This document shows positions 149 to 24,831 of a DNA stretch of 64,000 nt, in pieces. The DNA is from Candidatus Latescibacterota bacterium (GTDB taxonomy: Bacteria > Latescibacterota > UBA2968 > UBA8231), in NCBI GenBank assembly GCA_965242865.1, contig CBDETK010000013.1, positions 4,256,001-4,320,000 of the forward strand. Direction: 5' to 3'. A program made the translations under genes and the position numbers. The first letter of the stretch is position 1. Every line of letters starts with the position of its first letter. The notes beneath the pieces are model-generated. The model did no database searches, was not told the DNA's origin, and saw only the letters and a list, made by a program, of their open reading frames with translations.

Positions 149-1984
149 ATGCCTGCTGTTAGAATGTCCGTAGTGGCCGCTTGGTTGGGCCTTTGCGTCG
201 TCGCCCCGGCCGCGGCCGAGGAAGGGGCGTGGGAGGTGGTGCAGAAAATGCTCATGAGTACCAAGGATATTGTCGTACTCGACGGCACCAAGAAGGTGCC
301 CCTGCGCTACGAGGGGGAAGCAGAGCCTGCCCACGGCGACTGGATGGTGCGCCACCTGCTGTCCGATCCCGAAAGGCTCAACCCGTACACCTCCAGCGAT
401 GCCGGTGCCAGCAGGGTGCTGGAGCACATCTTTGAGAGCCTGCTCGACGCCGGTCACGATCCGCCGTACAACCTGCGGGGTCGAGTCGCCAAAGAGTACC
501 CGGAGGTTTCCGCGGACAAACTCGCGTACACGTTTGAGTTGCGCGACGGGGTTTACTTTTCAGACGGCAAGCCCCTGACGGCCGCGGACGTGGTCTTCAG
601 CATGAAGGTCATCCACAATCCCCAAGTACTCGCGCCGCATCTGCGCAACTACTACGCCACGGTCCGAGACGTGCAGGTCGTGGAGACCAACAAAATTCGC
701 TTCCTTTGCCGCGAGCCTTATTTCCGCAACGACTTGATCTTGGGTGGCCTTTCTATCCTGCCCAAACACTTCTACGACCCGGAGGGGCTGATGGACCCAG
801 TCGAGCTCACCAGCTTGGTCGATGGCTCTTGGGAGGCCGGGCCGCACGCAGACCGGGTCCGGCGCTTTGCCGACCAGTTCAACCAAAACTTCAACCGCCA
901 AGCCCTCGGGTCCGGGCCGTACCGGATTGAAGACCCAGCGCGCGATTTGGTCACCCAGCAGAAAGTCGTGCTGACGCGGAATGCAAACTACTGGGGGCGG
1001 AATGTGGCAGGGCTGCTGCCGCCCGGGTTTGTCGATAAGGTGGTTTTTAAGATCATCAACAATACGGACGCCGCGTTCATCGAGTTGACCAACGGCCACC
1101 TCGACTACCACAGCTTGCGCCCGCTGGAGTTCCAGAAAAAGAGCTGGTCCGACGACTTTAACCGCCGCTTCCTCAAAGGGGTTAGCTACTCCAGCGGCTA
1201 TGTGTACATCGGGTGGAACAACGACCACCGGATTTTCGGGGATAAGCGGGTGCGCCAAGCCATGACCTACTTGACGGACCGCGAGGGCATGGTGGAGAAC
1301 ATCATGTTCGGCTTGGCCGAGACGGTAGAGGGGCCGATTCACAAATTCCGCCCCGAATACAACCACGACCTCGCGCCGTACCCGTACGACCCCGACCGCG
1401 CCCTCGACCTGCTGGCGGAGGCGGGCTGGGCGGACGCCGACGAGGACGGCATCCTCGACAAGAGCATAGACGGGGAGTTGGTGCCGTTCCGCTTTGAGAT
1501 ATTGGTCAATTCGGGCAACCAGATCCGCAAAGACATCGCCCTAACGGTCCAATACGAACTGCAAGACATCGGCATTGACTGCCGAGTGCGCGAGTTAGAC
1601 TGGTCGATCTTTCTGCAAAAGATCAAGCGCAAAAACTTTGACGCCATGGTGCTGGCCTGGACCGGCAGTTTGCGCTTCGCGCCCGATGGCTACCAGATCT
1701 GGCATTCCTCCCAAGCCGTCGAGAACGGTTCCAACCACGTAGTCTTTGTCAACGACGAAGTGGACCAAATTTTGGAGTCCTATCGCCGCGAGTTCGACGC
1801 GGACCAGCGCACCGCGCTCTACCGCCGCTTTCAGGAGATCCTGCACGAGGAACAGCCGTACACCTTCATGTGGAAGCCGCGCTCGCCCCAAGCCTACAGC
1901 CGCCGCTTCCGCGGCGTCACTTGGTATCCCCCCGGCGTCCGCTTGCAAGACTGGTGGGTCGCGCAGGAAGAGCAGCTATACTAG
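149..1984 (+). CDS. Peptide ABC transporter substrate-binding protein (SBP family 5, OppA/AppA-like)
   Basis: Signal peptide; LNPY, IFESLL, YTFELRDGVYFSDGKPLTAADVVFS, GSGPY and DKRVRQAM family 5 motifs. Confidence 0.93.
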   Translation: MPAVRMSVVAAWLGLCVVAPAAAEEGAWEVVQKMLMSTKDIVVLDGTKKVPLRYEGEAEPAHGDWMVRHLLSDPERLNPYTSSDAGASRVLEHIFESLLDAGHDPPYNLRGRVAKEYPEVSADKLAYTFELRDGVYFSDGKPLTAADVVFSMKVIHNPQVLAPHLRNYYATVRDVQVVETNKIRFLCREPYFRNDLILGGLSILPKHFYDPEGLMDPVELTSLVDGSWEAGPHADRVRRFADQFNQNFNRQALGSGPYRIEDPARDLVTQQKVVLTRNANYWGRNVAGLLPPGFVDKVVFKIINNTDAAFIELTNGHLDYHSLRPLEFQKKSWSDDFNRRFLKGVSYSSGYVYIGWNNDHRIFGDKRVRQAMTYLTDREGMVENIMFGLAETVEGPIHKFRPEYNHDLAPYPYDPDRALDLLAEAGWADADEDGILDKSIDGELVPFRFEILVNSGNQIRKDIALTVQYELQDIGIDCRVRELDWSIFLQKIKRKNFDAMVLAWTGSLRFAPDGYQIWHSSQAVENGSNHVVFVNDEVDQILESYRREFDADQRTALYRRFQEILHEEQPYTFMWKPRSPQAYSRRFRGVTWYPPGVRLQDWWVAQEEQLY

Positions 1985-1990: not shown

Positions 1991-2407
1991 GTGTCCTGTG
2001 CAGACACCCTCCAGTGGGAGAGCCTCCCCCTGCGCCGGGAGAAGCCAGCCAAGTCCATGCTGTTGGTCGCGCTCATCGTCGCTTCGGCCGCGGCCGCGGC
2101 CATTGGGTTTGAGCATTGGTTTTACGGGCTATTTTCTTTCGGAGCATTGACCGCCTCCCTGTCGCGCTATTTCTTTCCCACGCGCTACGTGCTCAACGGC
2201 GAAGGGGTTCACAGCGAACACCTCGGCCTCAAACGACGCCGGTTTTGGGGGGAATTTCGCCGGGCCGACGAACAGCGGGACGGCATTTTTTTGCGGCCGT
2301 CGGTCCGCCCGGGTCGGCTCGATTCCTTTCGCGGCGTTTTTTTGCGCTTCGATCAAAACCGCGCCGAAGTTGCGCGGTTCGTCCGGTGCCATGTTCCGAA
2401 TCAATAG
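1991..2407 (+). CDS. Hypothetical membrane protein (2 TM plus basic soluble tail)
   Basis: GTG start 6 nt after the SBP stop; two hydrophobic helices, then YFFPTRY...RLDSFRG. Confidence 0.7.
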   Translation: MSCADTLQWESLPLRREKPAKSMLLVALIVASAAAAAIGFEHWFYGLFSFGALTASLSRYFFPTRYVLNGEGVHSEHLGLKRRRFWGEFRRADEQRDGIFLRPSVRPGRLDSFRGVFLRFDQNRAEVARFVRCHVPNQ

Positions 2408-2729
2408 CTTAAAAGCCCAGTGGCGGCACGCTTTTGCCCTCGAAGACCCAGCGGCGGGTTGGTCTGAGGACGAGCGGGCACTCGTCGAGCGGCTGGCCGA
2501 GTTTATAGTGAGTCGCCGCTTGGGCGCGGCCGCGACCATGGCGTTGGAGGCCGGTCGCCCGCTCAACTTTTTGGGCAGCCAAGCCTTGGTTTTCTTGGCC
2601 CCGTTTGCCACGCTAATTTTTTCGCCCACCGAGTACCAGCACTTTACGCGCATGTTGGAGCGCCGCGAGTGCATAGACTTGCTCGCCGAGGCCATTGCCC
2701 AGCGCGACAGCCAAAAGCCAAAAGCATGA
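2391..2729 (+). CDS. Hypothetical protein
   Basis: ATG at 2391; stop overlaps the next ATG (ATGA); core LAEFIVSRRLG...LEAGRPLNFLGSQALVFLAPF. Confidence 0.7.
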   Translation: MFRINSLKAQWRHAFALEDPAAGWSEDERALVERLAEFIVSRRLGAAATMALEAGRPLNFLGSQALVFLAPFATLIFSPTEYQHFTRMLERRECIDLLAEAIAQRDSQKPKA

Positions 2730-4507
2730 ATGATCTCAACGTAGTTATCGCCACGGACTGCGGCAGTACCACCACCAAGGCGATCCTCATCGAAAAGAAG
2801 GACGGAGGGTATCGCCAGACCTTTCGCGGCGAGGCCCCCACCACAGTTGAGGCCCCCTTTGAGGACGTCACCCGGGGGGTGCTCAACGCCATTCAAGAGG
2901 TCGAGGAGCTTTCCGGGCGGCAGATCCTCGCGGGCGAGCGGATTATCGCGCCGGCCAACGGCGATGTCGGGGCCGATGTGTACATCTCGACGAGCAGCGC
3001 GGGCGGCGGGTTGCAGATGGTGGTGGCCGGCGTGGTGCTGGCGATGACCGGCGAGAGCGCGCAGCGCTGTGCCTTGGGCGCTGGGGCCATCGTCATGGAC
3101 GCGCTCGCCGCCAACGACGGCCGCTTGCCGCACGAAAAAATAGAGCGCATCCGTCAGTTGCGCCCCGACATGGTGCTGCTGTCGGGCGGCACGGATGGCG
3201 GCACGGTCAGCCACGTGGTTGAATTGGCCGAATTCATCCGCGCGGCCGACCCCAAGCCTCGCTTTGGCGCGGGCTTTAAGCTGCCGGTCATTTTTGCTGG
3301 CAACAAAGACGCGCGCGAGGAGGTTGAAAAGGCGCTGGGGGGGAAGGTGGCCCTGACCGTGACCGAGAATATCCGCCCGGTGCTCGAAGAGGAAAATCTG
3401 GCCCCGGCGCGGCACGTCATTCACGATCTCTTCCTCGAACACGTCATGGCGCAGGCCCCGGGCTACCGCAAGCTGATGGGCTGGACCGGTGCGCCGATTA
3501 GGCCGACGCCCGAGGCCGTAGGCCAGCTCATGCAGACCATTGCCCGCCAGCAGGAAATCAACGTCGTCGGCGTAGATATTGGCGGGGCGACGACCGATGT
3601 GTTCAGCGTCTTTGAGGGCGCGTTCAACCGCACGGTCAGCGCCAACCTCGGCATGTCCTATAGCGTCTCCAACGTGCTGGCCGAGGCCGGCCTCGACCCA
3701 ATCATGCGCTGGGTTCCTTTTGACATTGAGGAGGCCGACCTCCGCGACCGGATTAAAAACAAGATGATCCGGCCGACGACCATCCCCCAGCTCATGCAGG
3801 AGCTGCAAGTCGAGCAAGCCATTGCCCGCGAGGCCCTGCGCTTGGCCTTTGACCAGCACCGGGCGTTGGCGGTGGGATTGAAGGGGGTGCAGAGCAAGCG
3901 CACGCTGGCCGAGGTCTTTGAGCAGGGGGCCACCGGCGAGAGCTTAGTCGAGATGATGACGCTGGACCTGCTAGTCGGCAGCGGCGGCGTGCTCTCCCAC
4001 GCGCCCCGCCGGGCGCAGAGTTGCGCCATGCTCATAGATGCCTTTCAGCCCGAAGGCGTCACCCGCTTGGCAGTCGATAGCATCTTTATGATGCCGCACT
4101 TGGGGGTGCTCGCGACCGTGGACGAGCGGGCCGCGACCGAGGTTTTTGAGCGCGATTGCCTGATCTACTTGGGCACTTGTGTGGCCCCTGTGGGCGCGGG
4201 CAAGGCCGGCGAGGTCTGCCTCCAATACGAAATAGCCCAGCCCAGCGGCAGTCGCACTGGCCAGTTAGAGGTCGGCCAGCTCCAGCGGGTGCCCTTGGCC
4301 GCCGGAGAGGAGGCCGAAGTAGCCCTCCAGCCGGCCCGGCATTGGGATGTGGGGGCCGGCCCGGGGCACGCGCTCCATGCGCGGGTGCGCGGCGGGGTCG
4401 TAGGGCTCGTGTTGGATGGTCGCGGCCGCCCCATCCAGATGGCGACCGACCGCGACCGCTGGCGTCAGGTAAGCGACTGGCAGCGGGCGTTAAACCTATA
4501 CGAGTAG
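2726..4507 (+). CDS. Glutamate mutase L (GlmL/MutL reactivase family) ASKHA-fold ATPase
   Basis: DCGSTTTKA phosphate-1 and DIGGATTDVFS phosphate-2 motifs; family motifs SSAGGGL, LSGGTDGG, PTP, RTVSANLGM and GSGGVL; ATG at 2726. Confidence 0.88.
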   Translation: MNDLNVVIATDCGSTTTKAILIEKKDGGYRQTFRGEAPTTVEAPFEDVTRGVLNAIQEVEELSGRQILAGERIIAPANGDVGADVYISTSSAGGGLQMVVAGVVLAMTGESAQRCALGAGAIVMDALAANDGRLPHEKIERIRQLRPDMVLLSGGTDGGTVSHVVELAEFIRAADPKPRFGAGFKLPVIFAGNKDAREEVEKALGGKVALTVTENIRPVLEEENLAPARHVIHDLFLEHVMAQAPGYRKLMGWTGAPIRPTPEAVGQLMQTIARQQEINVVGVDIGGATTDVFSVFEGAFNRTVSANLGMSYSVSNVLAEAGLDPIMRWVPFDIEEADLRDRIKNKMIRPTTIPQLMQELQVEQAIAREALRLAFDQHRALAVGLKGVQSKRTLAEVFEQGATGESLVEMMTLDLLVGSGGVLSHAPRRAQSCAMLIDAFQPEGVTRLAVDSIFMMPHLGVLATVDERAATEVFERDCLIYLGTCVAPVGAGKAGEVCLQYEIAQPSGSRTGQLEVGQLQRVPLAAGEEAEVALQPARHWDVGAGPGHALHARVRGGVVGLVLDGRGRPIQMATDRDRWRQVSDWQRALNLYE

Positions 4508-4510
4508 CTC

Positions 4511-5626
4511 ATGGCCCACGCTTATACCCCGGGACTGCGCGTGACCCAACGCGCCGCCATCTACAAAGAGCGGCGGTTGCCCCTCCAAGGCGAAGTGGTC
4601 GTCGAGCGCGGCCAAGCCGTGCGCCGCGACCAAGTGGTGGCTCGCACCGAGCTGCCGGGCGAGGTGGCGACGCTCAACTTGGTCAACCGCTTGGGCATCG
4701 CGCCGGGCGAACTCGCCGGCTACATGCTCAAAAAAGAAGGCGACCGAGTCCAAGCCGGCGAGCCGCTCGCCGCGACGAGGCCGTTTATTCGGTGGTTCAA
4801 GACCGTAATTGAATCCCCGGTCAGCGGCACCGTCGAAAGCATTTCGCCGGTTACGGGGCAGGTGCTGTTGCGCCAAGCGCCTAAGCCGGTCGAAGTGCTG
4901 GCGTACGTCGATGGGGTCGTAGCCGAGGTTTTTGCCGACGAGGGGGTGCGCGTCGCCGCGCAAGGCGCGTACATACAGGGCATTTTCGGGGTGGGGGGGG
5001 AGTGCTGGGGTGCGCTGCACTTGGCGGTGGATGCCCCGGACGCCCGCGTCGGGCCGCTGGGCCCCGAAGTGGCGGGCAAGATCGCAGTGGTCGGCAGCCT
5101 GATTGGCGCGGAGACCGTAGAGCAGGCCCGGCAGGCTGGGGCCGTGGGGCTGATTGGCGGCGGCCTGCGCGACCGCGACCTCCGCGACCTGCTCGGGCGC
5201 GATTTGGGCGTGGCCATCACCGGGACCGAGCAAATCGGCCTGACCGTGGTGGCGACCGAGGGCTTTGGCCGCATCGCCATGGCCCGCAAGACTTTTGATA
5301 TTCTCCAAGCCTGCGCTGGCATGGATGCGTCGATGGCCGGCGCGACCCAAATCCGCGCCGGCGTGTTGCGGCCGGAAATCATCATTCCCACCGCCGCTGA
5401 CAACGGAGAAGAAGAGGGCCGGCCGGGCGCGGGCGGGTTGCAGGTGGGCGATTTGTTGCGCGTGATTCGGATGCCCTACTTTGGCCGGATCGGCCGCGTC
5501 AAGGACTTGCCGACCGAGTTGTGCGAGGTGGAGTCCGGGGCGCGGGTGCGGGTGTTGGCCGTAGAGTTTGAAGACGGGGAGCAGGCGGTAGTGCCCCGGG
5601 CAAATGTGGAGCTGATCGAGGGATAA
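4511..5626 (+). CDS. Hypothetical protein with barrel-sandwich-hybrid (lipoyl/RnfC-N-like) segments and C-terminal KOW/SH3-like domain
   Basis: LKKEGDRVQAGEPLA...ESPVSGTVESI; C-terminal LQVGDLLRVIRMPYFGRIGRV...VVPRANVELI; starts 3 nt after the GlmL-like gene. Confidence 0.75.
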   Translation: MAHAYTPGLRVTQRAAIYKERRLPLQGEVVVERGQAVRRDQVVARTELPGEVATLNLVNRLGIAPGELAGYMLKKEGDRVQAGEPLAATRPFIRWFKTVIESPVSGTVESISPVTGQVLLRQAPKPVEVLAYVDGVVAEVFADEGVRVAAQGAYIQGIFGVGGECWGALHLAVDAPDARVGPLGPEVAGKIAVVGSLIGAETVEQARQAGAVGLIGGGLRDRDLRDLLGRDLGVAITGTEQIGLTVVATEGFGRIAMARKTFDILQACAGMDASMAGATQIRAGVLRPEIIIPTAADNGEEEGRPGAGGLQVGDLLRVIRMPYFGRIGRVKDLPTELCEVESGARVRVLAVEFEDGEQAVVPRANVELIEG

Positions 5627-5630
5627 AGGC

Positions 5631-6878
5631 ATGAGAGCAAAAAGCTGGCTCGCTGCATTCGCGTTGGCGTGGCCGTTGGCGAGTGCGGCAGAAAATGCGG
5701 ACCAAGGGCTCGGCACCTTGCTGGTCCATCCTAAGCCGCCGATTGAGGTCCAAGCCTTTGACACCCCCAACGACGACGGGGGCAGCATTACCCTAACTTG
5801 GCCGCGCGACCGCCAGATCAGCGAACATGCGCTGTATCAGGTCGCCATCGCGGACTCGCCCCGCGGGCCTTTTCGCGTCGCGGCCGAGGTCGCGGCCTCG
5901 GGGAATTTGATGTCCGCAGCACCGGCGCTCTTTGGGCACGGGGCCGAGCTGGAAAATTACCATTATGTCAACATCGAGGAATTTGCCGGCGCGGGCGGCA
6001 AGTCTCCGCTAGAAGACGGCAAAACGTATTACTTCCACGTTGATGTGCGGTCCGCCGGGGGCGCGATCCGCGGCAAAGTGATCGTCCACGCCGAGTCGGC
6101 CGGCAATTTTTTCAATCGCGCCAAGGTCAACAATCTGGTGTTGTGCGTCCTGTTCTCAGGGCTTATCATGGGCTACATCGGCATTGCGCGGCGGCGCACG
6201 CTCAAAATTCGCCGCATCGCCGGGCTAGAGGCGCTCGACGAGGCCCTCGGGCGGGCAACCGAGATGGGCAAGCCAGTGCTCTTCATCCACGGCCTGCGCG
6301 ACATGAGCCAAATTTCGACCATTGCCGCAGTCAACATCTTGGGGCGGGTCGCGCGACGCACGGCCGAATACGACACCGCGCTGCGGGTGGTGGCGCCCGA
6401 TCCAGTGGTGATGTCCGTGAGTCAGGAGACCGTGAAAGCCTCGTACATCGAGGCGGGCCGGCCCGATGCCTTCAACCCGGATCACGTCTTCATCGCCGGG
6501 GCCGAGCAGTTTAGCTATGCGGCGGCCGTCGAGGGCATTATGCTCCGCGACCGGCCAGCGGCCCACATTATGATGGGGTATTTCTACGCTGAGTCCCTGC
6601 TGTTGGCCGAAACGGGTTCGACGACCGGGGCGATTCAGATCGCCGGCACCGATGCCTTCACTCAGTTGCCGTTCTTCATTACTACCTGCGACTACACCCT
6701 GCTCGGCGAAGAACTCTACGCCGCCAGTGCCTATCTATCCGGCGAGCCGCGGATGCTGGGCACCCTCAAGGGCCAAGACGCCGGCAAGGCCCTTATTTTG
6801 CTCGTCTTGGCGGTGGGCACGGTCTTGGCAACGGCCGGGCTGTTCCCCCAGCTAACGTACTTCTTCACTCCGCATTGA
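5631..6878 (+). CDS. Membrane protein with N-terminal Fn3-like domain and DUF6754-like domain
   Basis: Signal peptide; DTPNDDGGSITLTW...GKTYYF (Fn3-like); TM followed by IRRIAGLEALDEALGRATEMGKP...GEELYAASAYL and a C-terminal TM. Confidence 0.78.
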   Translation: MRAKSWLAAFALAWPLASAAENADQGLGTLLVHPKPPIEVQAFDTPNDDGGSITLTWPRDRQISEHALYQVAIADSPRGPFRVAAEVAASGNLMSAAPALFGHGAELENYHYVNIEEFAGAGGKSPLEDGKTYYFHVDVRSAGGAIRGKVIVHAESAGNFFNRAKVNNLVLCVLFSGLIMGYIGIARRRTLKIRRIAGLEALDEALGRATEMGKPVLFIHGLRDMSQISTIAAVNILGRVARRTAEYDTALRVVAPDPVVMSVSQETVKASYIEAGRPDAFNPDHVFIAGAEQFSYAAAVEGIMLRDRPAAHIMMGYFYAESLLLAETGSTTGAIQIAGTDAFTQLPFFITTCDYTLLGEELYAASAYLSGEPRMLGTLKGQDAGKALILLVLAVGTVLATAGLFPQLTYFFTPH

Positions 6879-6887
6879 GGAGGGGCC

Positions 6888-7547
6888 ATGCTGTTTTTTA
6901 GCCGCACCTTGCCGCTGGCCGTCGCCTTGGTCTTTGGCCTGCTGGGCATTGCCATCTACTACATACCGCACAGCCATGCCCAGGGCTTTGAGCGCGAGAT
7001 GGCAAAGTGGGTGCGCATCATCGCCGCGTTTGCCTACCTGCTCGGGCTGTACAGCCTGCTCAACCTGCATTGGCAGCGGATCCGCCAGCACGTCGTCGGT
7101 TGGGGCTACAGCTTGGTCGCGATCGCCAGCTTTGTGCTGATGATGGTTTTCGTCGTGTACAACGATGGCCGCGGCCCGTTTGCCGCCCAAGCCGAATCCG
7201 GGGGCTACAACTGGCTCTTCCAATACGTCCACCTGCCCTGTTCGGGCACCATGTTTTCGATCTTGGCCTTTTTCATCGCTTCGGCGGCCTACCGGACCTT
7301 TCGCGCCCGTACGCCCGAGGCCGCGCTGTTGCTGGTCGCGGCGGTGATCGTCATGCTGGGCCGGGTGCCCATTGGCCGGGAGATCTCGGAGTTTTTTCCG
7401 CTGGCGACCGACTGGCTGATGAGCGTACCGAATTTAGCGGCCAAGCGCGGCATTCTGCTCGGGGTGTCGCTCGGGGCCATCGCGACCTCGTTGCGGATCA
7501 TCTTCGGCATTGAGCGTTCGTATTTGGGCGGTGGAGGCGACGAGTGA
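6888..7547 (+). CDS. Polytopic membrane protein, unknown function
   Basis: SD GAGGAGG; about 6 TM helices; TMFSILAFFIASAAYRTFRAR and AAKRGILLG...LRIIFGIER motifs. Confidence 0.8.
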   Translation: MLFFSRTLPLAVALVFGLLGIAIYYIPHSHAQGFEREMAKWVRIIAAFAYLLGLYSLLNLHWQRIRQHVVGWGYSLVAIASFVLMMVFVVYNDGRGPFAAQAESGGYNWLFQYVHLPCSGTMFSILAFFIASAAYRTFRARTPEAALLLVAAVIVMLGRVPIGREISEFFPLATDWLMSVPNLAAKRGILLGVSLGAIATSLRIIFGIERSYLGGGGDE

Positions 7548-8362
7548 TCCAGATCGACCGCCGCATTCTCTTTGCCTTGGTGTTTTTAGGAGTGGTCGGG
7601 CCGCTCTTGATTGGGCTCCACCTGCCGGTCACCCCGAGCAAGCAGGTGCGAGCGGCGTACGACCAGTTTGAGCAGCTCGTCCCCGGGCAGGTCGTCTTAG
7701 TCTCCTTCTCCTACGGCGCCAGCACGGCCCCGGAGATGCAGCCCATGGCGCGGGCGATTTTGCGCCATGCGTTTGGCCGCGGGCTCAAGGTCGTCGCCAT
7801 CTGCCTGTGGCCCGAAGCGACCGGCCTCGCCCAAGCGGTGCTCGAGGAGATGGCGGCCGAATTCGATTTGACTTACGGCGTGGAGTACGCCTTTCTGGGC
7901 TACAAGCCCGGGACCTTTAGCGTCATCCTCAACATGGGACACGACGTCCACGGCGCATTTCCGCAGGACAATTGGGGCGCAGGTGTCGGCGAGTTGGAGT
8001 TGATGCGGAGGGTGCGCTCGTTGCGCGATTTCGACCTCGTCTTCGACCTAGGGGCCGGGGATTCGATTGAGTTTTGGTGGATCCCCTTCGGGCAGGAAAA
8101 GTACGGCTTTCCCTTTGCCGCGGGCTGCACCGCGGTCATGGCCCCGGATCTCTACCCATTTCTCGGCTCGGGCCAGCTCGTGGGCTTGCTCGGCGGCTTG
8201 GCTGGCGCGGCCGAATACGAGGTCCTGATTGGCCGCCGCGACGAGGCCAACAAGAGCATGTCCTCCCAGTCGGTCACCCATCTGGTCATTGTCGCCTTTG
8301 TGATTTTTGGCAATATCGCGTACTTCGCCGGTCGGCGGGGCCGCTCGCCGCAGGAGCGCTGA
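7544..8362 (+). CDS. Membrane-anchored alpha/beta domain protein, unknown function
   Basis: GTGA overlap with upstream gene; N- and C-terminal TM; GCTAVMAP..YPFL.SGQL.GLLGGL.GAAEYE. Confidence 0.8.
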   Translation: MIQIDRRILFALVFLGVVGPLLIGLHLPVTPSKQVRAAYDQFEQLVPGQVVLVSFSYGASTAPEMQPMARAILRHAFGRGLKVVAICLWPEATGLAQAVLEEMAAEFDLTYGVEYAFLGYKPGTFSVILNMGHDVHGAFPQDNWGAGVGELELMRRVRSLRDFDLVFDLGAGDSIEFWWIPFGQEKYGFPFAAGCTAVMAPDLYPFLGSGQLVGLLGGLAGAAEYEVLIGRRDEANKSMSSQSVTHLVIVAFVIFGNIAYFAGRRGRSPQER

Positions 8363-8365
8363 GTC

Positions 8366-9079
8366 GTGCGCGATACGTACGTCTTGTTGGGTTTTGTGCT
8401 GCTGTTTGCGGCCGGCAACATCGCCTTGGTGGCCAGCGGGACCTTGGCGGCCGACTGGACGGGGTTCGGCGTCATGGTCGCGGCCGGCATGACCTTGGCG
8501 CTCTACAGCTTCCTCTACAAGGACAACCCGCTTTTCAAGTTTGCCGAGCACGTCTTCGTCGGCGTGGCCGCGGCGTACATCTTCGGCCAGTACTGGTATC
8601 CGACGATTTACGGCGAGCTCATCGCCGAATGGACCGACCCGGGGAAAGGGGAGACGCCCAATTGGTGGCTGTTGGCCCCGACCGTGCTGGGGCTGTTGAT
8701 GCTGACGCGCTTTTCGCTGCGCTTGGGCTGGCTCAGCCGCTATGCGTTTGCATTTTTCGTCGGCCTCGGGGCCGGCTGGACGATCCCCCGCTATATTTCC
8801 TCCTTCATTCTCGCCCAAATCGAGCCTACATTGCGGCCGCTGACTTGGAGCGTAGAAGGGCTCAATTTGCTGATCGTCCTCGTGGGGGTCGTCGGGGTGT
8901 TGGTTTACTTTTTCTTTTCCGTTGAGCACACCAGCGCGGCGGGCCATATCTCCAAGGTGGGGATCTGGTTTTTGATGGTCTCGTTTGGTGCTTCGTTTGG
9001 TTACACCATTATGGCGAGGGTCTCGCTGTTGATCGGGCGCGTGACCTTTCTCTTAGAGGACTGGCTGCACCTGATGTAA
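8366..9079 (+). CDS. Polytopic membrane protein, unknown function
   Basis: About 7 hydrophobic helices; YSFLYKDNPLFKFAEH and GIWFLMVSFGASFGYTIMAR motifs. Confidence 0.8.
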   Translation: MRDTYVLLGFVLLFAAGNIALVASGTLAADWTGFGVMVAAGMTLALYSFLYKDNPLFKFAEHVFVGVAAAYIFGQYWYPTIYGELIAEWTDPGKGETPNWWLLAPTVLGLLMLTRFSLRLGWLSRYAFAFFVGLGAGWTIPRYISSFILAQIEPTLRPLTWSVEGLNLLIVLVGVVGVLVYFFFSVEHTSAAGHISKVGIWFLMVSFGASFGYTIMARVSLLIGRVTFLLEDWLHLM

Positions 9080-9112: not shown

Positions 9113-12100
9113 ATGACCAAGTTTGCAGGTGTTTTTTGCGTCCTGCTCGCGCTGAGTGTGGCGCCGGCCGAGGCCAGTACCGGCGGCAAAATCGCCGGGG
9201 TCGTCAAGGATGCCACCACCGGCGATGGGTTGCCCCAAGCCAATGTCGCGGTGGTAGGGACCAAGCTGGGGACCACGGCCGACGAAAAGGGCCGCTTCTT
9301 CATCCTCAACGTGCCGGCCGGCACCTACGCCCTCAAGGCCACGTATATCGGCTATGCGGATTATACCGTCGAAGATGTGCGGGTTTCTACTGACCTGACT
9401 ACGAAGCTCGACATCGACCTGACTTCTGCGGACATCCAAGTCGAGGAAGTCGTCATCCGGGCCGAGCGGCCGATCATCGACAAAAACGCCACCAATGCGG
9501 TGCGGATTGTCGGAGCCGAAGACCTAGAGATTCTGCCGTTTAGAGGCGTCAGCCAAGTCTTGTCCCTGCAAGCGGGCGTGGTTGAAGACGAGGGGGCGTT
9601 GCACATCCGCGGCTCGCGCTCCGACGAAATTGGCTATTACGTCGATGGAGCCAGCGTCCGCAACATAATCACCGGCAGCTTTGCGGTCGGCCTAATTGAC
9701 GAAGCCCTAGAGGAAGTTCAGCTACAGGCTGGCGGCTTCAACGCCGAGTACGGCGGAGCCAACGCCGGCATCGTCTTGCAAGAGCTCCGCACCGGGGGCC
9801 ACGATTGGGACTTTACGATCGTGGCCGAGTCGGACAATTTCACTTCCGACTTTGAGCAGCGGTTCGGCACGTACTCTTATGGCTATTCCAACCAAGTGAT
9901 CACGGCTGGCGGCCCGGTCGCGGGCAACCAAAACATCCGCGCCTTTGTCGCCGGTCAGCGCAGGAGCGTGGACTATCGCCCGACCTACTGGTCGGGGTTT
10001 GAGTTTGAGAATTTGGTGGATACGGGCAATCGCCAAGGGCGCGTCCATTGGGCCGAAGACGAGGAAGGCAATCCCATCCCAGACGAGGTCGAGCGGCTGG
10101 AGGTCAAGCCGGGCAACATCCCGCACACCGGCAGATCGCTCCTCGACTTCAACGGCACCCTGCACTTCAACTACAATCCCATCCTGTTGCGGGTCACGGG
10201 CCTGCATTCCATCGAGGACCGCGAACTCAACATCAACCCCGTCAAAAACATCCTCAACCAAGAACGCCTCAACGAGCGGACGCTTTCTTCTAGCTTGGTC
10301 AACGTAAAGGCCATTCACTTGCTCGACCCGAGCCTGTTCTACGAAATGAATGTCAGTTTCTACAATCAGGGGCGGGAGAGTTTTGACGGGGTGTTCAAAG
10401 AGCGTTGGTGGGTGTACAACGACAGCGTGGCCGTGCAGCGCGCCCTCGAAGGCGGCCCGGAGTACACCCCCTATACGGCCAACGGCTCGATCCCCGAGCC
10501 GTACGACCTGAGCGGGTTTCCGTTCAATCGCCCGGGCTCGCCGACCAATTCTGCAACGGGCAACAGCACGGGTGCTTGGTACGACAAGGAACAGGACCGC
10601 TATTGGGGCTTGGCTGGCAGCATTACCAAGCAGACCGCGGTCCATCAACTCAAGGCCGGCTTCGACTACCAGAGGTGGACGTCGCGCCGCCACGCCATCT
10701 TCAACGGGTCCATTCGCTCGGGCATCGCCGCGACCTACCCCAAGCTAGACGCAGTGTACCAGCGGTACTACCGCGGCGAGCTCGCCGAGGGCGCGATCCT
10801 CAACGCGCTGATCGAAACCGCCGATACCCTGTCCGAAGGCGAGGGGAGCCTCGACGACCTCAGGCGGTTTTTGCGCCGCAGTTCGGGCGACTTTTTTGGC
10901 TACGACGAGTTTGGCCGCTCCATTGAGTCGTCGGGCGACCCCCTGCAAAACCCGCGCGAGCCCGTGGTCGGCTCGGCTTTTGTCCAAGACAAGATCGAAT
11001 ACAACGATCTGATCATCAACGCCGGGTTGCGCTTGGATTACTTTGATGCGGCGAGTTGGCGCTTTGTCGATCAATCGGCGCCGGTGATTGACAAACAGGA
11101 GCGCACCTTGGTGATCGAAAACTCGGCCGGCACCTATATGGAAAAGACGCCGGCCTATACGGAGATCAGCCCGCGCTTGGGCTTTTCGTTCCCAGTGTCG
11201 GATATAACGGTCTTTCACGTGCAGTACGGGCGCTTCTCCCAGATGCCGCGGATGCGCGATATGTTCACCGGCGGGGCGCGGCTGGCAGTGGAGTTGGGGG
11301 GGCAAAACTTCATCCTCACGCCCACGGCCTTTGACATTGAGCCGGTGCGCACGACCCAGTACGAAATTGGCTTTGAGCGTCAGTTTGCGGATTTTGCCTC
11401 GTTTGACGTGACGAGTTTTTACCGCGACATCAAGGGCCAGCTCCAAATCCGGCGGCAAGAGGTGTCGGGCAACGCAGTGGAGGCCGGCTCGTTTACGTAC
11501 TTGCAAAACGGCGACTTCGCCACGACCAAGGGCCTTGAGTTCCAGTTTAAGGTGCGGCGGATCAACCGCCTGCGGGCCGAGTTGAACTACACCCTGTCCG
11601 ACGCGCGCGGCACCGGTTCGACCCTGACCTCGGCGCAATCGGGCGCGGAGAACGACACGGACGTGCCGACGATCATCTCGCCGCTCGACTTCAACCAGAC
11701 GCACCGCGGCGCCCTGTTTTTGGACTATCGCTTTGCCGACAACGAGGAGAACTCGCTCGTCCGCCGCTTGGGGGCCAACCTGCTGGCGCGTTTTGCCAGC
11801 GGCTACAACTTCACGCTGGTAGATGGTTCAATCGGCCAGCGCGGGCCGGAAGAAGGCGGCATTCTCGCCAGCGATGACTCGCGCTCGCGCAAGCCGGTTG
11901 AATCCATCAATCGCTCTACGACGCCTTGGACCTTCCGGGTCGACCTGCGGATCGACAAGGGCTTTTCGCTCTACGGGGTCAATGCCCAGATTTACGCGTA
12001 CGTGCAAAACCTGTTCAACCGCAAGAACGTGATTAACGTGTACGGCCGGACCGGCAGCGACAAGGACGACGGCTTTTTGACGAATCCAGACCTGAGCCAG

Positions 12101-12250
12101 CAGATCGTCGAAGCCAGCGGCGGCTTGCAGTACCAGCAGCTCTACGAGGCGATCAACTTGCTCAACCGCCAGCACTACTGGTCCACCGAAGGCGGCGACA
12201 TTTACGACGCCCCGCGGCAGCTCCGCTTCGGGCTACAATTCGACTTCTAG
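9113..12250 (+). CDS. TonB-dependent receptor with N-terminal carboxypeptidase-regulatory-like domain
   Basis: SD AGGAGG; signal peptide; GKIAGVVKD...YIGY; plug motif HIRGSRSDEIGYYVDG...GGFNAEYG; SPRLGFSFP; C-terminal PRQLRFGLQFDF. Confidence 0.93.
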   Translation: MTKFAGVFCVLLALSVAPAEASTGGKIAGVVKDATTGDGLPQANVAVVGTKLGTTADEKGRFFILNVPAGTYALKATYIGYADYTVEDVRVSTDLTTKLDIDLTSADIQVEEVVIRAERPIIDKNATNAVRIVGAEDLEILPFRGVSQVLSLQAGVVEDEGALHIRGSRSDEIGYYVDGASVRNIITGSFAVGLIDEALEEVQLQAGGFNAEYGGANAGIVLQELRTGGHDWDFTIVAESDNFTSDFEQRFGTYSYGYSNQVITAGGPVAGNQNIRAFVAGQRRSVDYRPTYWSGFEFENLVDTGNRQGRVHWAEDEEGNPIPDEVERLEVKPGNIPHTGRSLLDFNGTLHFNYNPILLRVTGLHSIEDRELNINPVKNILNQERLNERTLSSSLVNVKAIHLLDPSLFYEMNVSFYNQGRESFDGVFKERWWVYNDSVAVQRALEGGPEYTPYTANGSIPEPYDLSGFPFNRPGSPTNSATGNSTGAWYDKEQDRYWGLAGSITKQTAVHQLKAGFDYQRWTSRRHAIFNGSIRSGIAATYPKLDAVYQRYYRGELAEGAILNALIETADTLSEGEGSLDDLRRFLRRSSGDFFGYDEFGRSIESSGDPLQNPREPVVGSAFVQDKIEYNDLIINAGLRLDYFDAASWRFVDQSAPVIDKQERTLVIENSAGTYMEKTPAYTEISPRLGFSFPVSDITVFHVQYGRFSQMPRMRDMFTGGARLAVELGGQNFILTPTAFDIEPVRTTQYEIGFERQFADFASFDVTSFYRDIKGQLQIRRQEVSGNAVEAGSFTYLQNGDFATTKGLEFQFKVRRINRLRAELNYTLSDARGTGSTLTSAQSGAENDTDVPTIISPLDFNQTHRGALFLDYRFADNEENSLVRRLGANLLARFASGYNFTLVDGSIGQRGPEEGGILASDDSRSRKPVESINRSTTPWTFRVDLRIDKGFSLYGVNAQIYAYVQNLFNRKNVINVYGRTGSDKDDGFLTNPDLSQQIVEASGGLQYQQLYEAINLLNRQHYWSTEGGDIYDAPRQLRFGLQFDF

Positions 12251-12279: not shown

Positions 12280-15200
12280 ATGCGAAAACTCATTTTTGGA
12301 ATGATAGCGGCGGGGCTGGTGGTCGGCGCGGCCGAGGCGCGCGAGCCGTTTTACGGCCGGGCGGCCAAAGCCCTCCAAGAGAAGGAGGACAAGGACAAGG
12401 TCTCGACCGAGCGGACGCTGCTCAACATCAACAACATGGCCATGTGGATCAAGAGCGATGGTGCGTCGGCTCACAACCCGATCACCGGCGGCGCGGGCGT
12501 GACGTTTCCGCGCTCGACCGACCAAGTCATCTTTCAGGACGGCCTTATTTGGGGCGGGCGGGTCATGGACGGCAATCCACAGGAGGTGCGCGTCGGCGGC
12601 CAGACCTATGCCATTGGCACGGTCCCGGGCGTCATTGAGTCGAAAGGCGTGGCTCAAGACCGCGCTGCGGCGCGCCTGTACCGAATTCGCCGCGACTGGG
12701 CGACCGCGGATTTGCGGCTCGACGCCTCCGAGATCTTCAACAAGGGCCTGAGCGAAGTCTCCGCGGCTAATGAGGATTCCGTGCGCGCCCGATACGAGCG
12801 CGACTGGCTGGAGTGGCCGGCCGAGTTGGGTGCTCCCTTTTACGACAACGACGGAGACGGGCAGTACGACCCCGCGGTGGACGAGCCGGGGTTGGCCAAT
12901 GCCGATCAAGTGATCTGGTTCGCGGTCAACGATTTGGACCCAGGGGCTGTCGCTGGCCTCTACGGCGCCCTGCCGATTGGCATGGAGACGCAGGTGACGC
13001 TGTGGGGGTACGCCCGCACGGACGCGCTGGGCGACGCGATCTTTAAGAAGTACAAGGTCATTTACAAGGGCACCGAGAGTACGCCGGACACGGCGCGCGT
13101 TGAGGACATGTACTTCGCTCAGTGGTCCGATCCGGACTTGGGCGACTTTGGCGACGACTTTGCCGGGGCCGATGTCGATTTGAGCCTCGGGTACGTGTAC
13201 AACTCAATTGACGACGACTCCCATTACGTGGACTTTGGGCTGGCACCGCCGGCCGCGGGCTACGACTTTTTGCAAGGTCCGATTGTGCCGGTGCATGTCC
13301 TTGACGCGGAGGGGAATGTCGCCGTGGATGAAGAAGGCAACCCACTGCTCGACGAGAGCTCGGTGGCGATCTTCAACGACGGGCTGAGGCCCGGGTACAA
13401 AAATTTGCCGATGACTGCGTTTGTGTACTTTGCGGCGGGGTCGTCAGTTGACGACCCGGACTTGCGAGCGTACGACGGAACCTTGCAGTGGTACAACCTG
13501 CTGCAAGGCTTCAAGCCGCAGGCCAACATCGACAAGCCCGTGCCCTACACCAATCCGCTGACCAACGAGGACACCAAGTTCACGCTTGCCGGCGACCCAA
13601 CGCGGGCCACGGGCTGGAACGACGGAGTCCCCTTGCCGGCCGGCGACCGGCGCATCGTAATGGCGACCGGCCCGTTTGAGATGGCGTTGGGCGACACGCA
13701 AGAAGTAGTGGTCGCTCTGCTGGGCGGCATTTCTACCGACCGCCTGCGCAGCGTCTCCAAGCTCAAGTTCACGGACCAGTTCGTGCAGGACGCGTACAAC
13801 AGCTTCTTTGAGGTTCCCAAGCCGCCGGCTCCGCCCAATGTTCGCGTCGTTGAGCTGGATCAGACGATCGTCTTGGACTGGGGCTGGGACGACGAGTCGA
13901 TAAAGGCCGCGGAAGGCGAGGGCTCCCCCGGCTTTGATTTTGAAGGCTACAACGTCTATCAGTTGCCCTCGGCCGAAGCCACGCTTTCCCAAGGGGTCAA
14001 GGTGGCGACCTTTGATATTGAAAACGGCGTGACCGCGATCTTGGGCATTGACCTAGACGACGAGTCGGGTGTGGTGCTCGACGTGCCTCTACAGATCGGT
14101 GCCGACTTTGGGCTCAAGCGCAATATCAAGATCACCCAAGACCGCATCCGCAGCGGTCCGTTGGTCAACGGCCAGCGCTACTACTTTGCGGTGACGGCCT
14201 ACAACCGCGCCACGGCCGGAGGGGCCACCACCACGCTGGAAAGTGCGCCGCAAAACTTGATCTGCGTACCGCAGGAGCCGCCGCCGGGCACTCGCTATTT
14301 CAGCAAGGCCGCCGCCGCGATAGTCGCCGAGCACATTGCCGGTGGCAGCGATGGTGGGGTCGTGGTCACTGTAGTTGATCCGACGAGAACCACCGGGCAC
14401 GACTACGCGATCGAATACGCTGCTGACGCCGACGGCAACACGGTGTGGAATCTGATCGACAAGACTAGCGGTCAGACTCTGTTGGCCGATCAGACCGATC
14501 AGGCTGGCAAGGTCCTCTATGTTGAGGCTGCCGGCATTGAGGTCGCGGTTTCTGGTCCGCCGGCTGGCATGAAGAGTTGGGCCGGGCCGGCCATGCCGTT
14601 TGAGGCTTGGAAGGCTTCGGCTGAAGCGGCCGACTTGACGGGCGATGGCCAGATCGACGCCGCCGATTTCGCACAGGCCGTTGATCACGCCAGCGACACG
14701 CGCTGGTTCACTTGGGCTGGCGGCTCCAATAGCTGGGGTGCCGAAGGCTTCCAAGGCGCGATGACCGGCGATCCCAACCGCCAGTGGTTCGCGCCCACCA
14801 CGGTGACGCCCGATCAATTGCGCACGGTGGAACTGCGCTTTACAGATGTCATAGAAGAAGATGGCGAAGACCAGTACAAGCCGGTTGACCTCAACAACGA
14901 GAACGTCTCCTATGCCTATCGCTACTTGCGGGGGGCTGGAGCGGACCCGCCGGCACTCGCCACCCTGACGACCACGACGAACCCGTGGGACTTTGGCCAG
15001 TACATCATCAATACCGAAGGCCCGGGCGTGTACGTCTATCAAGACCGGCGGCCGATCGCGCTGTCGGCTTGGGATATTGAGAGCGATCCGCCGCGCCGCC
15101 TCGAAGTGGCCTTCCTCGAAAACAACCAACCCGGCGGCTTGGTCAACGGCGCGTACGGACCGCCTTGGTACGATGTGGTGAGCAATATCGCTGGGGCCGG

Positions 15201-15801
15201 ACCACGCGAGTGGCTGTTCATCTTTGATTTGGACTACACGGACCCCAACCAAGGCGAGAACAGCGACATCTTGTTGCGGAACGGTTTGATTCACGATGGA
15301 GGCGAAAACGAGGAATACCTGCCCTTCATGTGGATCATCTTTTCTGAGCGGCGGCGCGAAGACGACTTTCCCTCCAACGGCGACTCCTTCCTGCTCGTCG
15401 CCAACCACGTCAACACCCCAGCCGACCGCTTCGCGTTTACGATCTTAGGGTCGGAAAGCGGCGACGCCTTTCTAGCCGAGGACATCAAAAAGATCAACGT
15501 TTTCCCCAATCCCTACTTAGGGGTCAACACGGCGGAGACCAGCCGCTTTAGCCACTTTGTGACCTTCAGCCACCTGCCGCCCAAGGCGAATATCCGCATC
15601 TTCGACCTGAGCGGAACGCTGGTGCGGACGATTGAGAAAGACGATCCGTCGCAGTTCACGCGCTGGGACCTGCAAAACCACAACGAACTGCCGGTAGCCA
15701 GCGGCATGTACATCGCCCATATCGAGCTGCCGGGGACCGGCATGACCCGCGTCCTCAAGCTGGCCATCATTCAAGAGCAGCAGTTCTTGGAGAATTTCTA
15801 G
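12280..15801 (+). CDS. Large secreted protein with T9SS type A-like C-terminal domain
   Basis: Signal peptide; acidic Ca-loop motifs; Fn3-like region (FEGYNVYQ...NGQRYYFAVTAY); C-terminus INVFPNPY...IRIFDLSGTLVRTI...WDL...VASGMYI...KLAII. Confidence 0.85.
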   Translation: MRKLIFGMIAAGLVVGAAEAREPFYGRAAKALQEKEDKDKVSTERTLLNINNMAMWIKSDGASAHNPITGGAGVTFPRSTDQVIFQDGLIWGGRVMDGNPQEVRVGGQTYAIGTVPGVIESKGVAQDRAAARLYRIRRDWATADLRLDASEIFNKGLSEVSAANEDSVRARYERDWLEWPAELGAPFYDNDGDGQYDPAVDEPGLANADQVIWFAVNDLDPGAVAGLYGALPIGMETQVTLWGYARTDALGDAIFKKYKVIYKGTESTPDTARVEDMYFAQWSDPDLGDFGDDFAGADVDLSLGYVYNSIDDDSHYVDFGLAPPAAGYDFLQGPIVPVHVLDAEGNVAVDEEGNPLLDESSVAIFNDGLRPGYKNLPMTAFVYFAAGSSVDDPDLRAYDGTLQWYNLLQGFKPQANIDKPVPYTNPLTNEDTKFTLAGDPTRATGWNDGVPLPAGDRRIVMATGPFEMALGDTQEVVVALLGGISTDRLRSVSKLKFTDQFVQDAYNSFFEVPKPPAPPNVRVVELDQTIVLDWGWDDESIKAAEGEGSPGFDFEGYNVYQLPSAEATLSQGVKVATFDIENGVTAILGIDLDDESGVVLDVPLQIGADFGLKRNIKITQDRIRSGPLVNGQRYYFAVTAYNRATAGGATTTLESAPQNLICVPQEPPPGTRYFSKAAAAIVAEHIAGGSDGGVVVTVVDPTRTTGHDYAIEYAADADGNTVWNLIDKTSGQTLLADQTDQAGKVLYVEAAGIEVAVSGPPAGMKSWAGPAMPFEAWKASAEAADLTGDGQIDAADFAQAVDHASDTRWFTWAGGSNSWGAEGFQGAMTGDPNRQWFAPTTVTPDQLRTVELRFTDVIEEDGEDQYKPVDLNNENVSYAYRYLRGAGADPPALATLTTTTNPWDFGQYIINTEGPGVYVYQDRRPIALSAWDIESDPPRRLEVAFLENNQPGGLVNGAYGPPWYDVVSNIAGAGPREWLFIFDLDYTDPNQGENSDILLRNGLIHDGGENEEYLPFMWIIFSERRREDDFPSNGDSFLLVANHVNTPADRFAFTILGSESGDAFLAEDIKKINVFPNPYLGVNTAETSRFSHFVTFSHLPPKANIRIFDLSGTLVRTIEKDDPSQFTRWDLQNHNELPVASGMYIAHIELPGTGMTRVLKLAIIQEQQFLENF

Positions 15802-24525: not shown

Positions 24526-24615
<90 letters not shown>

Positions 24616-24621
24616 TTTTGT

Positions 24622-24712
24622 GGAGAGATGGCCGAGTGGTCGAAGGTGCACGACTGGAAATCGTGTGTAGGGCAATCCCCTACCGTGGGTTCGAATCCCA
24701 CTCTCTCCGCCA
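24622..24712 (+). tRNA. tRNA-Ser (anticodon GGA)
   Basis: GGAGAGA/TCTCTCC acceptor; CACGA-CTGGAAA-TCGTG; long variable arm; T-loop; CCA. Confidence 0.97.
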
Positions 24713-24726
24713 TAATTGATCCGGAT

Positions 24727-24802: not shown

Positions 24803-24831
24803 TATTTCCCGGGTTTGGTAAATGTAGATTT

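Follow-up and report, generated by a model that had tools for sequence, protein, structure and literature searches.

Eight tightly coupled genes lie on the plus strand at positions 1991–9079 of a 64,000-nucleotide stretch of DNA, hereafter the window, from a Candidatus Latescibacterota bacterium (assembly GCA_965242865.1, contig CBDETK010000013.1, positions 4,256,001 to 4,320,000 of the forward strand). We refer to these genes and their products, in order, as g1 to g8. On balance, we favor the view that seven of them, g2–g8 (2391–9079), encode one conserved, previously undescribed system that would act as an ATP-powered transmembrane machine, serving transport or envelope-directed mechanotransduction, and not as a reactivase of a B12-dependent mutase. 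The system joins an actin-fold (ASKHA) ATPase, g3, and the small protein g2 to a predicted cytoplasmic partner of the ATPase, g4, and to a membrane module of four proteins, g5–g8, of which g5 belongs to the family DUF6754. Functional coupling of the ATPase to the membrane proteins, which a preliminary description of the window had proposed, is supported by synteny across phyla, by near-perfect co-occurrence in two sampled phyla, and by the presence of the parts elsewhere in the genome when they are unlinked.

Conservation and co-inheritance of the gene cluster

Neighboring open reading frames (ORFs) of the cluster are separated by gaps of 3, 4, 9, and 3 nt or overlap, as the preliminary description had observed. 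When 185,579 species-representative genomes were scanned with a profile of the DUF6754 domain (alignment A1), at least 574 gave a match, and the best 80 of these matches, a nonrandom sample, were examined with up to 10 kb on each flank by searching the window proteins against all six-frame ORFs. The loci carry labels of the Latescibacterota, Gemmatimonadota, Planctomycetota (anammox genera and Phycisphaerae), Nitrospirota (many Nitrospira), Methylomirabilota (Methylomirabilis), Armatimonadota (as Armatimonadetes), WOR-3, Poribacteria, Eisenbacteria, Edwardsbacteria, Stahlbacteria, and others. All 63 loci with at least 2.7 kb of sequence downstream of DUF6754 contain g6, g7, and g8, and of the 64 loci whose upstream flank spans at least 3.6 kb, 47 have g2, g3, and g4 together. 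The recurrence of the same gene set in other phyla confirms that the cluster is more than a chance arrangement. It also trims the set of eight coupled genes that had been described: g2–g8 stand as a conserved core, but g1, which is always found upstream of g2, is lineage-restricted (17 of 80 loci), and the core is therefore one of seven genes. Clustering of all remaining ORFs in the 80 loci gave no further neighbor common to several phyla.

When the genes are not adjacent, they tend to be found elsewhere in the genome. Among five genomes without g3 or g4 near the membrane genes, a MutL-type gene (the Pfam family of g3, PF13941) lies elsewhere in four, the one miss being a 1.4-Mb assembly, and g4 lies elsewhere in all five. 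In each of the four genomes with g3 unlinked from the membrane genes, g2 is directly upstream of g3. Because the parts lie elsewhere when unlinked, the system can be divided into three dispersible submodules: g2 with g3, g4 by itself, and g5–g8, which are always adjacent. The three submodules are co-inherited.

This co-inheritance is also seen in genomes sampled irrespective of synteny. An even draw of 201 Planctomycetota genomes, with MutL counted over its cutoff, has DUF6754 in 56 genomes, MutL in 57, and g4 in 55. MutL accompanies DUF6754 in 54 of the 56 positive genomes and g4 does so in 53, whereas among the 145 DUF6754-negative genomes MutL appears in three (a full-length protein in genome G214, a partial match at 102 bits, and a fragment at a contig end) and g4 in two (G214 and a contig-end fragment). 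The pattern in Nitrospirota (n = 151) is the same, with MutL in all 25 genomes that have DUF6754 and in one of the 126 that do not, again as a contig-end fragment. In the organism's own class (n = 41), DUF6754 and MutL are each found in 40 genomes and both in 39, so that MutL is present in 39 of the 40 DUF6754-positive genomes and in the single negative one; the single misses are in assemblies of 87% and 58% completeness. PF13941 and DUF6754 are thus co-conserved in most of the 80 loci and in the sampled phyla, a comparison that the preliminary description had put forward. The system was not found in any of 14 well-known control genomes, a possible reason for its having escaped notice.

In Planctomycetota genomes such as G058, G086, G123, G170, and G231, a second DUF6754 gene is found about 3.3 kb from the first, with the same contig and orientation, indicating that this subunit has been duplicated in tandem in some lineages.

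The features of the window are collected in Table 1. No Pfam or NCBIfam family was assigned to g1, g2, g6, g7, or g8; for g2 (alignment A7, 20 sequences), Pfam gives nothing in the 20 members apart from scattered single hits. The PADLOC-DB defense models matched none of the eight proteins at E-values up to 0.01. A search of seven related loci with Rfam at the gathering threshold returned no riboswitch or other element, the Rfam matches in the window are confined to three tRNAs and a signal recognition particle (SRP) RNA distant from the cluster, and a scan for promoters and terminators did no better than on shuffled sequence (2 versus 2.6 and 15 versus 14.0). At least half of the words sampled from 1991–9079 are present in each of nine public sequencing runs, four of which are labeled as sponge metagenome.

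Table 1. Genes and other features of the window, with the number of the 80 related loci in which a homologue was found. Positions are those of the window; hydrophobic segments of g1, g6, g7, and g8 are from hydropathy. TM, transmembrane.
Feature	Position	Strand	Description	Loci (of 80)
SBP_bac_5 gene	149–1984		Solute-binding protein; ends 6 nt before g1	7
g1	1991–2407	+	138 aa; single hydrophobic segment, residues 22–40	17
g2	2391–2729 (or TTG 2370)	+	About 110 aa; central hydrophobic stretch containing Pro and Gly; start uncertain (TTG 2370 or ATG 2391)	49
g3	2726–4507	+	593-aa ASKHA-fold ATPase, Pfam MutL (PF13941)	51
g4	4511–5626	+	371 aa; predicted cytoplasmic partner of the ATPase; barrel-sandwich hybrid, small β-barrel, swiveling β/β/α, and KOW-SH3-like parts	52
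g5	5631–6878	+	415-aa DUF6754 protein; signal peptide, exported N-domain, TM, Rossmann-like domain, TM	80
g6	6888–7547	+	219-aa polytopic membrane protein; six hydrophobic segments	78
g7	7544–8362	+	272 aa; soluble domain of about 215 aa flanked by two terminal TM segments	72–73
g8	8366–9079	+	237-aa polytopic membrane protein; about 6–7 segments	70 (misses at contig ends)
TonB-type receptor gene	9113–12250		CarboxypepD_reg and Plug; begins 33 nt after g8	6
1173-aa protein	12280–15801		Subthreshold type IX secretion C-terminal sorting domain (15 bits against 27)	
PorV-like protein	15824–16852		Outer-membrane protein, follows the 1173-aa protein (PF19572, E 1.3e-10)	
tRNA genes and SRP RNA	24526–25101		Three consecutive tRNA genes, then large SRP RNA (181 bits)	

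The actin-fold ATPase and its partner protein

Translation of g3 is taken to begin at ATG 2726, which lies 19 codons into an ORF that opens at 2669 and overlaps the stop codon of g2 by 4 nt. The match to MutL is strong (E 2.3e-126, 422.6 bits against a threshold of 27, residues 26–497 of the 612-aa ORF). An alignment of 23 sequences (A6) has a mean column identity of 66% across phyla, and its Nitrospirota and Planctomycetota rows are 65–69% identical to g3 of the window. The stretches T10–K18, D284–D291, and G418–G421, which we take to be the nucleotide-binding motifs, are invariant in all 23 sequences, and ATP hydrolysis by g3 is accordingly a prediction from its sequence. Beyond the ASKHA core, g3 has a conserved C-terminal extension of about 110 residues with invariant G556, G557, G560, D564, R566, G567, R568, and P569, for which Pfam gave no hit. 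A sequence search of the PDB found no solved relative of g3.

The name of the Pfam family points to the GlmL proteins of glutamate mutase, and the resemblance is real: PF13941 and an N-terminal nucleotide-binding stretch are common to both, and g3 is about 30% identical over the ASKHA core to GlmL of the Peptoclostridium, Rhizobium, Prevotella, and E. coli plasmid records. In all four regions fetched (plasmid records), however, bona fide GlmL has 461–467 residues and is encoded in the order glmS-glmL-glmE-mal. Across the GlmL proteins compared, lengths run from 461 to 470 residues and the gene sits between glmS and glmE, whereas g3 has 593 residues with its C-terminal extension and keeps company with g2, g4, and DUF6754 rather than with a mutase. 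Its scores fall below the NCBIfam cutoffs for NF040745 (227.4 against 475 bits), NF040744 (203.9 against 600), and TIGR01319 (155 against 204.05).

Nor does the genome appear to offer a mutase to reactivate. The host assembly (6.0 Mb, 93.6% complete) has no match to PF06368 (Met_asp_mut_E), PF09043 (Lys-AminoMut_A), or PF01642 (MM_CoA_mutase), and PF06368 gave no match in any of the five other carrier genomes searched. Because PF06368 and PF09043 exceeded their cutoffs in none of the 14 control genomes, a six-frame phmmer search was added with GlmS, GlmL, GlmE, and methylaspartate ammonia-lyase from the Peptoclostridium record as queries. In the host genome, the GlmE and ammonia-lyase queries match nothing, the GlmL query finds only g3, and the sole match of the GlmS query is a B12-binding protein near 2.08 Mb (E 6e-6). 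As a positive control, the same queries recovered a glmS-glmL-glmE cluster, with a GlmL of 470 residues, in another genome of the class (G040, locus L125, G040:C4:283000-297000). That genome also has an ATPase of the system type adjoining DUF6754, so the two kinds of PF13941 protein coexist. The host genome has only two B12-binding hits, at 2.08 and 3.39 Mb of the contig, and the window, at 4.256–4.320 Mb, holds neither a mutase nor a B12-binding subunit, as had been noted before. One hit is beside a methyltransferase-like gene and the other in an ORF resembling radical S-adenosylmethionine (SAM) proteins; judged by eye, they are probably a corrinoid methyltransferase-type and a B12/radical-SAM-type protein.

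A careful maximum-likelihood tree of PF13941 (37 rows, 31 long and 6 short GlmL-type; unrooted, with midpoint rooting only) sets the long forms apart from the short ones across a branch of length 6.22 that has 100/100 support, a split to be read with the long branches and uneven composition of the data in mind and with two of the short rows (L123 and L124) coming from unannotated records. A further branch, supported at 91/96, sets off the 24 system-type rows, among them four natural fusions. End branches are 0.06–0.5 for the system type and 1.7–5.1 for the short forms, and g3 thus evolves far more slowly than GlmL. The scores below the NCBIfam cutoffs, the 100/100 branch, and the genome without a mutase together support the view, already taken in the preliminary description, that g3 is not a mutase-linked GlmL; it falls in a separate clade. 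The preliminary idea that the ATPase was repurposed implies an evolutionary direction, for which an unrooted tree offers no support. Related ORFs of another kind, about 540–720 residues long and matching only profile positions 1–270 of PF13941 (112–134 bits), were seen in G250 and G401–G404; they occur in five of five genomes of a small phylum.

The partner protein g4 has an alignment (A2, 20 sequences) with a mean column identity of 61% and invariant stretches at residues 233–240, 249–253, and 277–289. Its AlphaFold2 (AF2) model, built from a 20-row alignment, has a predicted local distance difference test (pLDDT) score of 84.5 and divides into a barrel-sandwich hybrid, a small barrel, an α/β domain, and, at the C terminus, a barrel of KOW/SH3-like type. 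The barrel-sandwich and KOW parts named in the preliminary description are therefore present, together with a swiveling domain that had gone unnoticed. Foldseek matched only the KOW and hybrid parts of the model, which was also compared with VIA-align against 48,161 chains, a comparison in which Z-scores rise only moderately above those of unrelated models. On this scale, residues 152–297 resemble the swivel domains of Enzyme I (2wqd; Z 9.7, root-mean-square deviation (rmsd) 2.9, 109 residues aligned) and rifampin phosphotransferase (5hv1, Z 9.3), followed by RraA (3c8o, Z 8.9), the C-domain of pyruvate kinase (2e28, Z 8.1), and the small subunit of aconitase X (7cnr_B, Z 8.0). Residues 49–123, approximately, resemble NqrA/RnfC (4u9o, Z 7.9; 8a1u, Z 7.6; 8ahx_C, Z 7.5), and residues 307–371 the KOW domains of NusG and Spt5 (Z 7–8).

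By sequence, g4 is far less revealing. Pfam gives weak matches to Biotin_lipoyl, RnfC_N, and NqrA_N at residues 71–117, searches of the PDB by sequence or profile gave matches only at E-values of 0.23 or above, and the ESM Atlas returned for g4, as for g7, only unnamed clusters of its own kind. The Biotin_lipoyl (PF00364) hit totals 26.2 bits, and no stretch of it passes alone. No Lys is invariant or nearly so in A2, from which we conclude that g4 is not a biotin or lipoyl carrier. An LplA/LipB-type ligase gene found in loci L021, L022, L024, L027, L028, and L084 was considered as a functional lead and rejected on the same ground, the lack of a conserved Lys; in L028, the ligase gene is just upstream of g1. 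There is also no invariant His in residues 152–297, and the invariant His3 belongs to an N-terminal tail that is flexible in the model.

That the ATPase and g4 act as one unit follows from their natural fusion. Of 39 longer relatives of g4, 38 carry PF13941, and 35 of these are 989–1022 residues long; in the two that were checked (P0272 and P0275), g3 residues 4–572 or 4–592 are followed by all of g4. The other three fused proteins are shorter (659–719 residues) and begin inside the ATPase, and they are therefore probably fragments. Some fusions have Planctomycetota or Neomarinimicrobiota as source labels and are named "glutamate mutase L" or "TIGR01319 family". The Planctomycetota also have paralogous versions of the unit. 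At four loci, a MutL protein of the long type is paired with a g4-like protein that has two hybrid motifs and a swivel domain and lacks KOW, and a second fused type is represented by three ORFs of 824–911 residues. These paralogous and fused units are found in loci L106–L112 (genomes G057, G068, G092, G128, G190, and G203). Nothing recurs among the neighbors of the paralogous pairs; two acyl-CoA dehydrogenase genes are seen in one locus only.

The membrane module, a proposed mechanism, and alternatives

The preliminary assignment of g5 to DUF6754 holds, with a match to PF20539 of E 1.9e-111 (371.7 bits against a threshold of 27, residues 158–404). The "Fn3" label given to its exported domain could not be confirmed, as the N-terminal part has no Pfam match at E-values up to 1. 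Hydropathy shows two segments after an N terminus resembling a signal peptide, with an exported N-domain of about 130 residues. In the AF2 model of residues 150–415 (pLDDT 91), a six-stranded Rossmann-like domain sits between two long (TM) helices. This domain is very conserved in A1, with invariant Arg, Glu, and Gly residues and a nearly invariant Cys204. Because the N-terminal part is exported and the first TM segment is followed by a stretch rich in Arg and Lys, the positive-inside rule would place the Rossmann-like domain in the cytoplasm. The exported part varies in length among DUF6754 proteins: 150 representatives (P0121–P0270) have 169–1341 residues, with a median of 538, and 93 of them have at least one copy of a D-x-P-x-D-x-G motif, which stands just after the signal peptide in the examples printed. 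Pfam found no informative N-terminal domain in ten long DUF6754 proteins, one of which has HEAT repeats.

The other three membrane proteins are conserved but anonymous. Mean column identities are 52% for g6 (alignment A4) and 49% for g7 (A3), and g8 was aligned likewise (A5). Pfam matches are scattered and subthreshold, with no family hit in more than 5 of 30 members of g6 and DUF3704 hit in 11 of 29 members of g8; g7 has no Pfam family, and profile searches of the PDB gave no hit for g6 or g8 and nothing below E 0.04 for g7. By hhalign, no relation was detectable between g5 and g7 (probability 1.8%), g6 and g8 (0.8%), or DUF6754 and GlmS (0.2%). Since both termini of g7 are rich in Arg, its soluble domain is predicted by the positive-inside rule to be periplasmic; four longer homologues with N-terminal zinc ribbons are consistent with this N-in topology.

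We propose that ATP binding and hydrolysis by g3 would move the swiveling domain of g4, and that the g3/g4 unit would dock from the cytoplasm onto the membrane module, where the Rossmann-like domain of DUF6754 is the most plausible site. The resulting work could then be transmitted through g6 and g8 to the periplasmic domains of g5 and g7.

A number of observations weigh against this proposal or limit the support for it. The cytoplasmic contact between g3/g4 and the membrane module is a prediction. Foldseek and VIA-align returned for the DUF6754 domain a flat list of generic Rossmann folds (Z about 9–10), including phosphoglycerate kinase, sirtuins, KTN/RCK, short-chain dehydrogenases/reductases, and transhydrogenase dIII, that picks out no family. 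For g6–g8, Pfam detected no transporter or other known membrane family beyond the scattered subthreshold hits, and no Rnf/Nqr family is among its hits at E-values up to 1. The role of motor in a transporter or energy-coupling complex, which the preliminary description gave to the ATPase, stays at the level of a hypothesis. In 17 of the 64 loci with enough upstream flank, neither g3 nor g4 is near the membrane genes. Among the sampled Planctomycetota, G214 has g3 and g4 with no DUF6754 hit, and G095 and G098 have DUF6754 hits with neither g3 nor g4, although the hits in G098 are a few kb from a contig start. No g5–g8 genes stand beside the paralogous pairs at the four loci or the three 824–911-residue fusions, which implies that the ATPase pair can work without an adjacent membrane module. 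One protein, P0271, does join g4 to the signal anchor of g5 and to DUF6754, stopping at position 281 of 415; as a single sequence that ends inside DUF6754, it may be an error, and it constitutes weak evidence. Finally, related genomes are not independent, and the counts given here are descriptive and not tests.

The best of the alternatives is that g3 and g4, by analogy with ASKHA reactivases, form a chaperone-like service module that would spend ATP on opening or reloading a membrane enzyme with a cofactor, g5–g8, with no transport cycle. We regard this as unlikely, though it deserves to be taken seriously. A swiveling domain of the kind supplied by g4 is also part of diol dehydratase reactivase, and paralogous or fused g3/g4 units without membrane genes are what one would expect of a module with different clients. 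The conserved Rossmann-like domain of DUF6754, with its invariant residues, could hold a nucleotide-type ligand. In addition, the nearest named family is that of the glutamate mutase accessory protein GlmL/MutL, which a figure legend calls a chaperone for glutamate mutase reactivation (PMC4682846). However, Pfam finds no cofactor-binding family in g5–g8 and no enzyme family in the cluster, the hhalign comparison of DUF6754 with the B12-binding GlmS is negative, and the one-to-one co-occurrence fits a stoichiometric subunit equally well.

The fold of g4 raises another option, an ATP-primed phosphorelay or group translocation like that of the phosphotransferase system (PTS), with g3 as the kinase, the swiveling and barrel-sandwich domains of g4 as phosphoryl carriers, the Rossmann-like domain of DUF6754 as the last carrier, and g6 and g8 as the permease. 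ASKHA proteins include kinases, the best matches of g4 residues 152–297 are phosphohistidine swivel domains (2wqd and 5hv1), and His3 of g4 is invariant and Cys204 of DUF6754 nearly so. Against this, the swivel domain itself has no invariant His, no family of the phosphoenolpyruvate (PEP) utilizers or the PTS is detected by Pfam at E 0.01, and the Z-scores are of a size that unrelated folds can reach, with RraA, the pyruvate kinase C-domain, and aconitase X matching about equally well. A relay of this type therefore seems improbable to us.

We give still less weight to the idea that g3 has a cytoskeletal or positioning role, as an actin-like filament or scaffold that g2 and g5–g8 would hold at the membrane. 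Its membership in the actin/ASKHA fold family is compatible with such a role, as is the constant company of g2 with its hydrophobic stretch; in several ASKHA proteins, short tails mediate binding to membrane partners. Fusion to a multidomain partner of 371 residues is, however, atypical of filament formers, and a review that lists glutamate mutase among actin-fold enzymes places it, in the passage concerned, with the nonpolymerizing enzymes of the superfamily (PMC5597319).

Marginally weaker again is the case for an ATP-driven importer of peptides or amino acids working with the neighboring solute-binding protein (SBP) and outer-membrane receptor. The proximity of both genes to the cluster in the window (Table 1) had suggested such a substrate in the preliminary description, a suggestion that comparison with other loci does not sustain: the SBP and TonB-type receptor genes recur in no more than 7 and 6 of the 80 loci, respectively, all of them from close relatives, and no neighbor outside g2–g8 is common across phyla. 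Two Latescibacterota loci (L021 and L027) have the SBP gene between g3 and g4, an arrangement more suggestive of insertion than of partnership. We consider an importer of this kind very doubtful.

Lastly, we see practically no room for g3 as an ordinary B12-mutase reactivase with its mutase elsewhere and an incidental adjacency to membrane genes, for although it matches Pfam MutL strongly and its relatives are named "glutamate mutase L" in public sources, the subcutoff scores, the mutase-free genome, the branch of length 6.2, the coexistence of both types in G040, and the lack of a PF06368 match in the five other carriers searched all speak against it.

Relation to described systems and significance

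The transmembrane machine that we favor has partial counterparts among several known systems. Diol/glycerol dehydratase reactivase (DdrAB, PduGH) and EutA combine an ASKHA ATPase with a swiveling β/β/α domain and perform ATP-driven work on a partner. In those proteins, the ATPase chain itself contains the swiveling domain as an insertion and acts on a soluble B12 enzyme, whereas here the swivel is on a separate protein or a C-terminal fusion, together with barrel-sandwich and KOW parts, and the partner would be a four-protein membrane module. None of g1–g8 matches the diol dehydratase reactivase or EutA families of Pfam at E 0.01.

Like NqrA and RnfC, g4 is a predicted cytoplasmic protein with an N-terminal barrel-sandwich hybrid, and its gene adjoins those of small polytopic membrane proteins. 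The likeness is limited to a hybrid domain of about 70 residues, and the scores stay under the cutoffs (RnfC_N, 25.5 against 25.6 bits; NQRA_N, 19.3 against 25). Unlike the Rnf and Na+-NQR complexes, g5–g8 match no flavin, Fe-S, NADH-binding, or Rnf/Nqr membrane family in Pfam, and an ASKHA ATPase is foreign to those complexes. The resemblance of g4 residues 152–297 to the swivel of PEP-utilizing enzymes (Enzyme I and rifampin phosphotransferase; rmsd 2.7–2.9 over 104–109 residues) is similarly bounded, as the g4 domain has neither the invariant His nor a Pfam match and its ATP-binding partner is of the ASKHA rather than the ATP-grasp type.

A cytoplasmic actin-fold ATPase coupled to membrane proteins with periplasmic domains is found in PilM-PilN/O, FtsA, and MreB-RodZ. 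To our knowledge, these systems have no barrel-sandwich and swiveling partner and no DUF6754-type subunit, and our searches turned up no sequence or profile relation between them and g1–g8. We know of no described system that combines an ASKHA ATPase, a barrel-sandwich/swiveling/KOW partner, and a DUF6754-type membrane module of four proteins, and it is for this reason that we rate the system as new in kind. In the literature searched, which excluded subscription journals and supplements, no paper described DUF6754, PF13941, or the system.

We put forward more tentatively, as a possibility that we would not yet expect to hold, that this is the first transmembrane machine in which an actin-fold ATPase takes the place of an ABC, P-type, rotary, or AAA+ motor; swivel movements of g3/g4 would drive a four-subunit module whose domains lie on either side of the membrane. 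The module occurs in Nitrospira, anammox bacteria, Methylomirabilis, Latescibacterota, Planctomycetota, WOR-3, and further phyla without model organisms. It would follow from this bolder reading that most "glutamate mutase L" genes in these phyla are part of the system and that the mutase reactivases are a small, fast-evolving side branch.

Overall, the system is large, with 2223 representative clusters of PF20539 at 50% identity and at least 574 species-representative genomes, and it is under unusually strong constraint; most of its components are without a family, a solved relative (g3, g4, g6, g7, and g8 were searched by sequence), or a paper. Its carriers include bacteria of biogeochemical interest, namely nitrite oxidizers, anammox bacteria, and NC10. 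If our reading is correct, the widespread annotations "glutamate mutase L" and "TIGR01319 family" would have to be corrected. It would also define a testable seven-protein complex and may reveal a new way in which ATP is coupled to work across a membrane.

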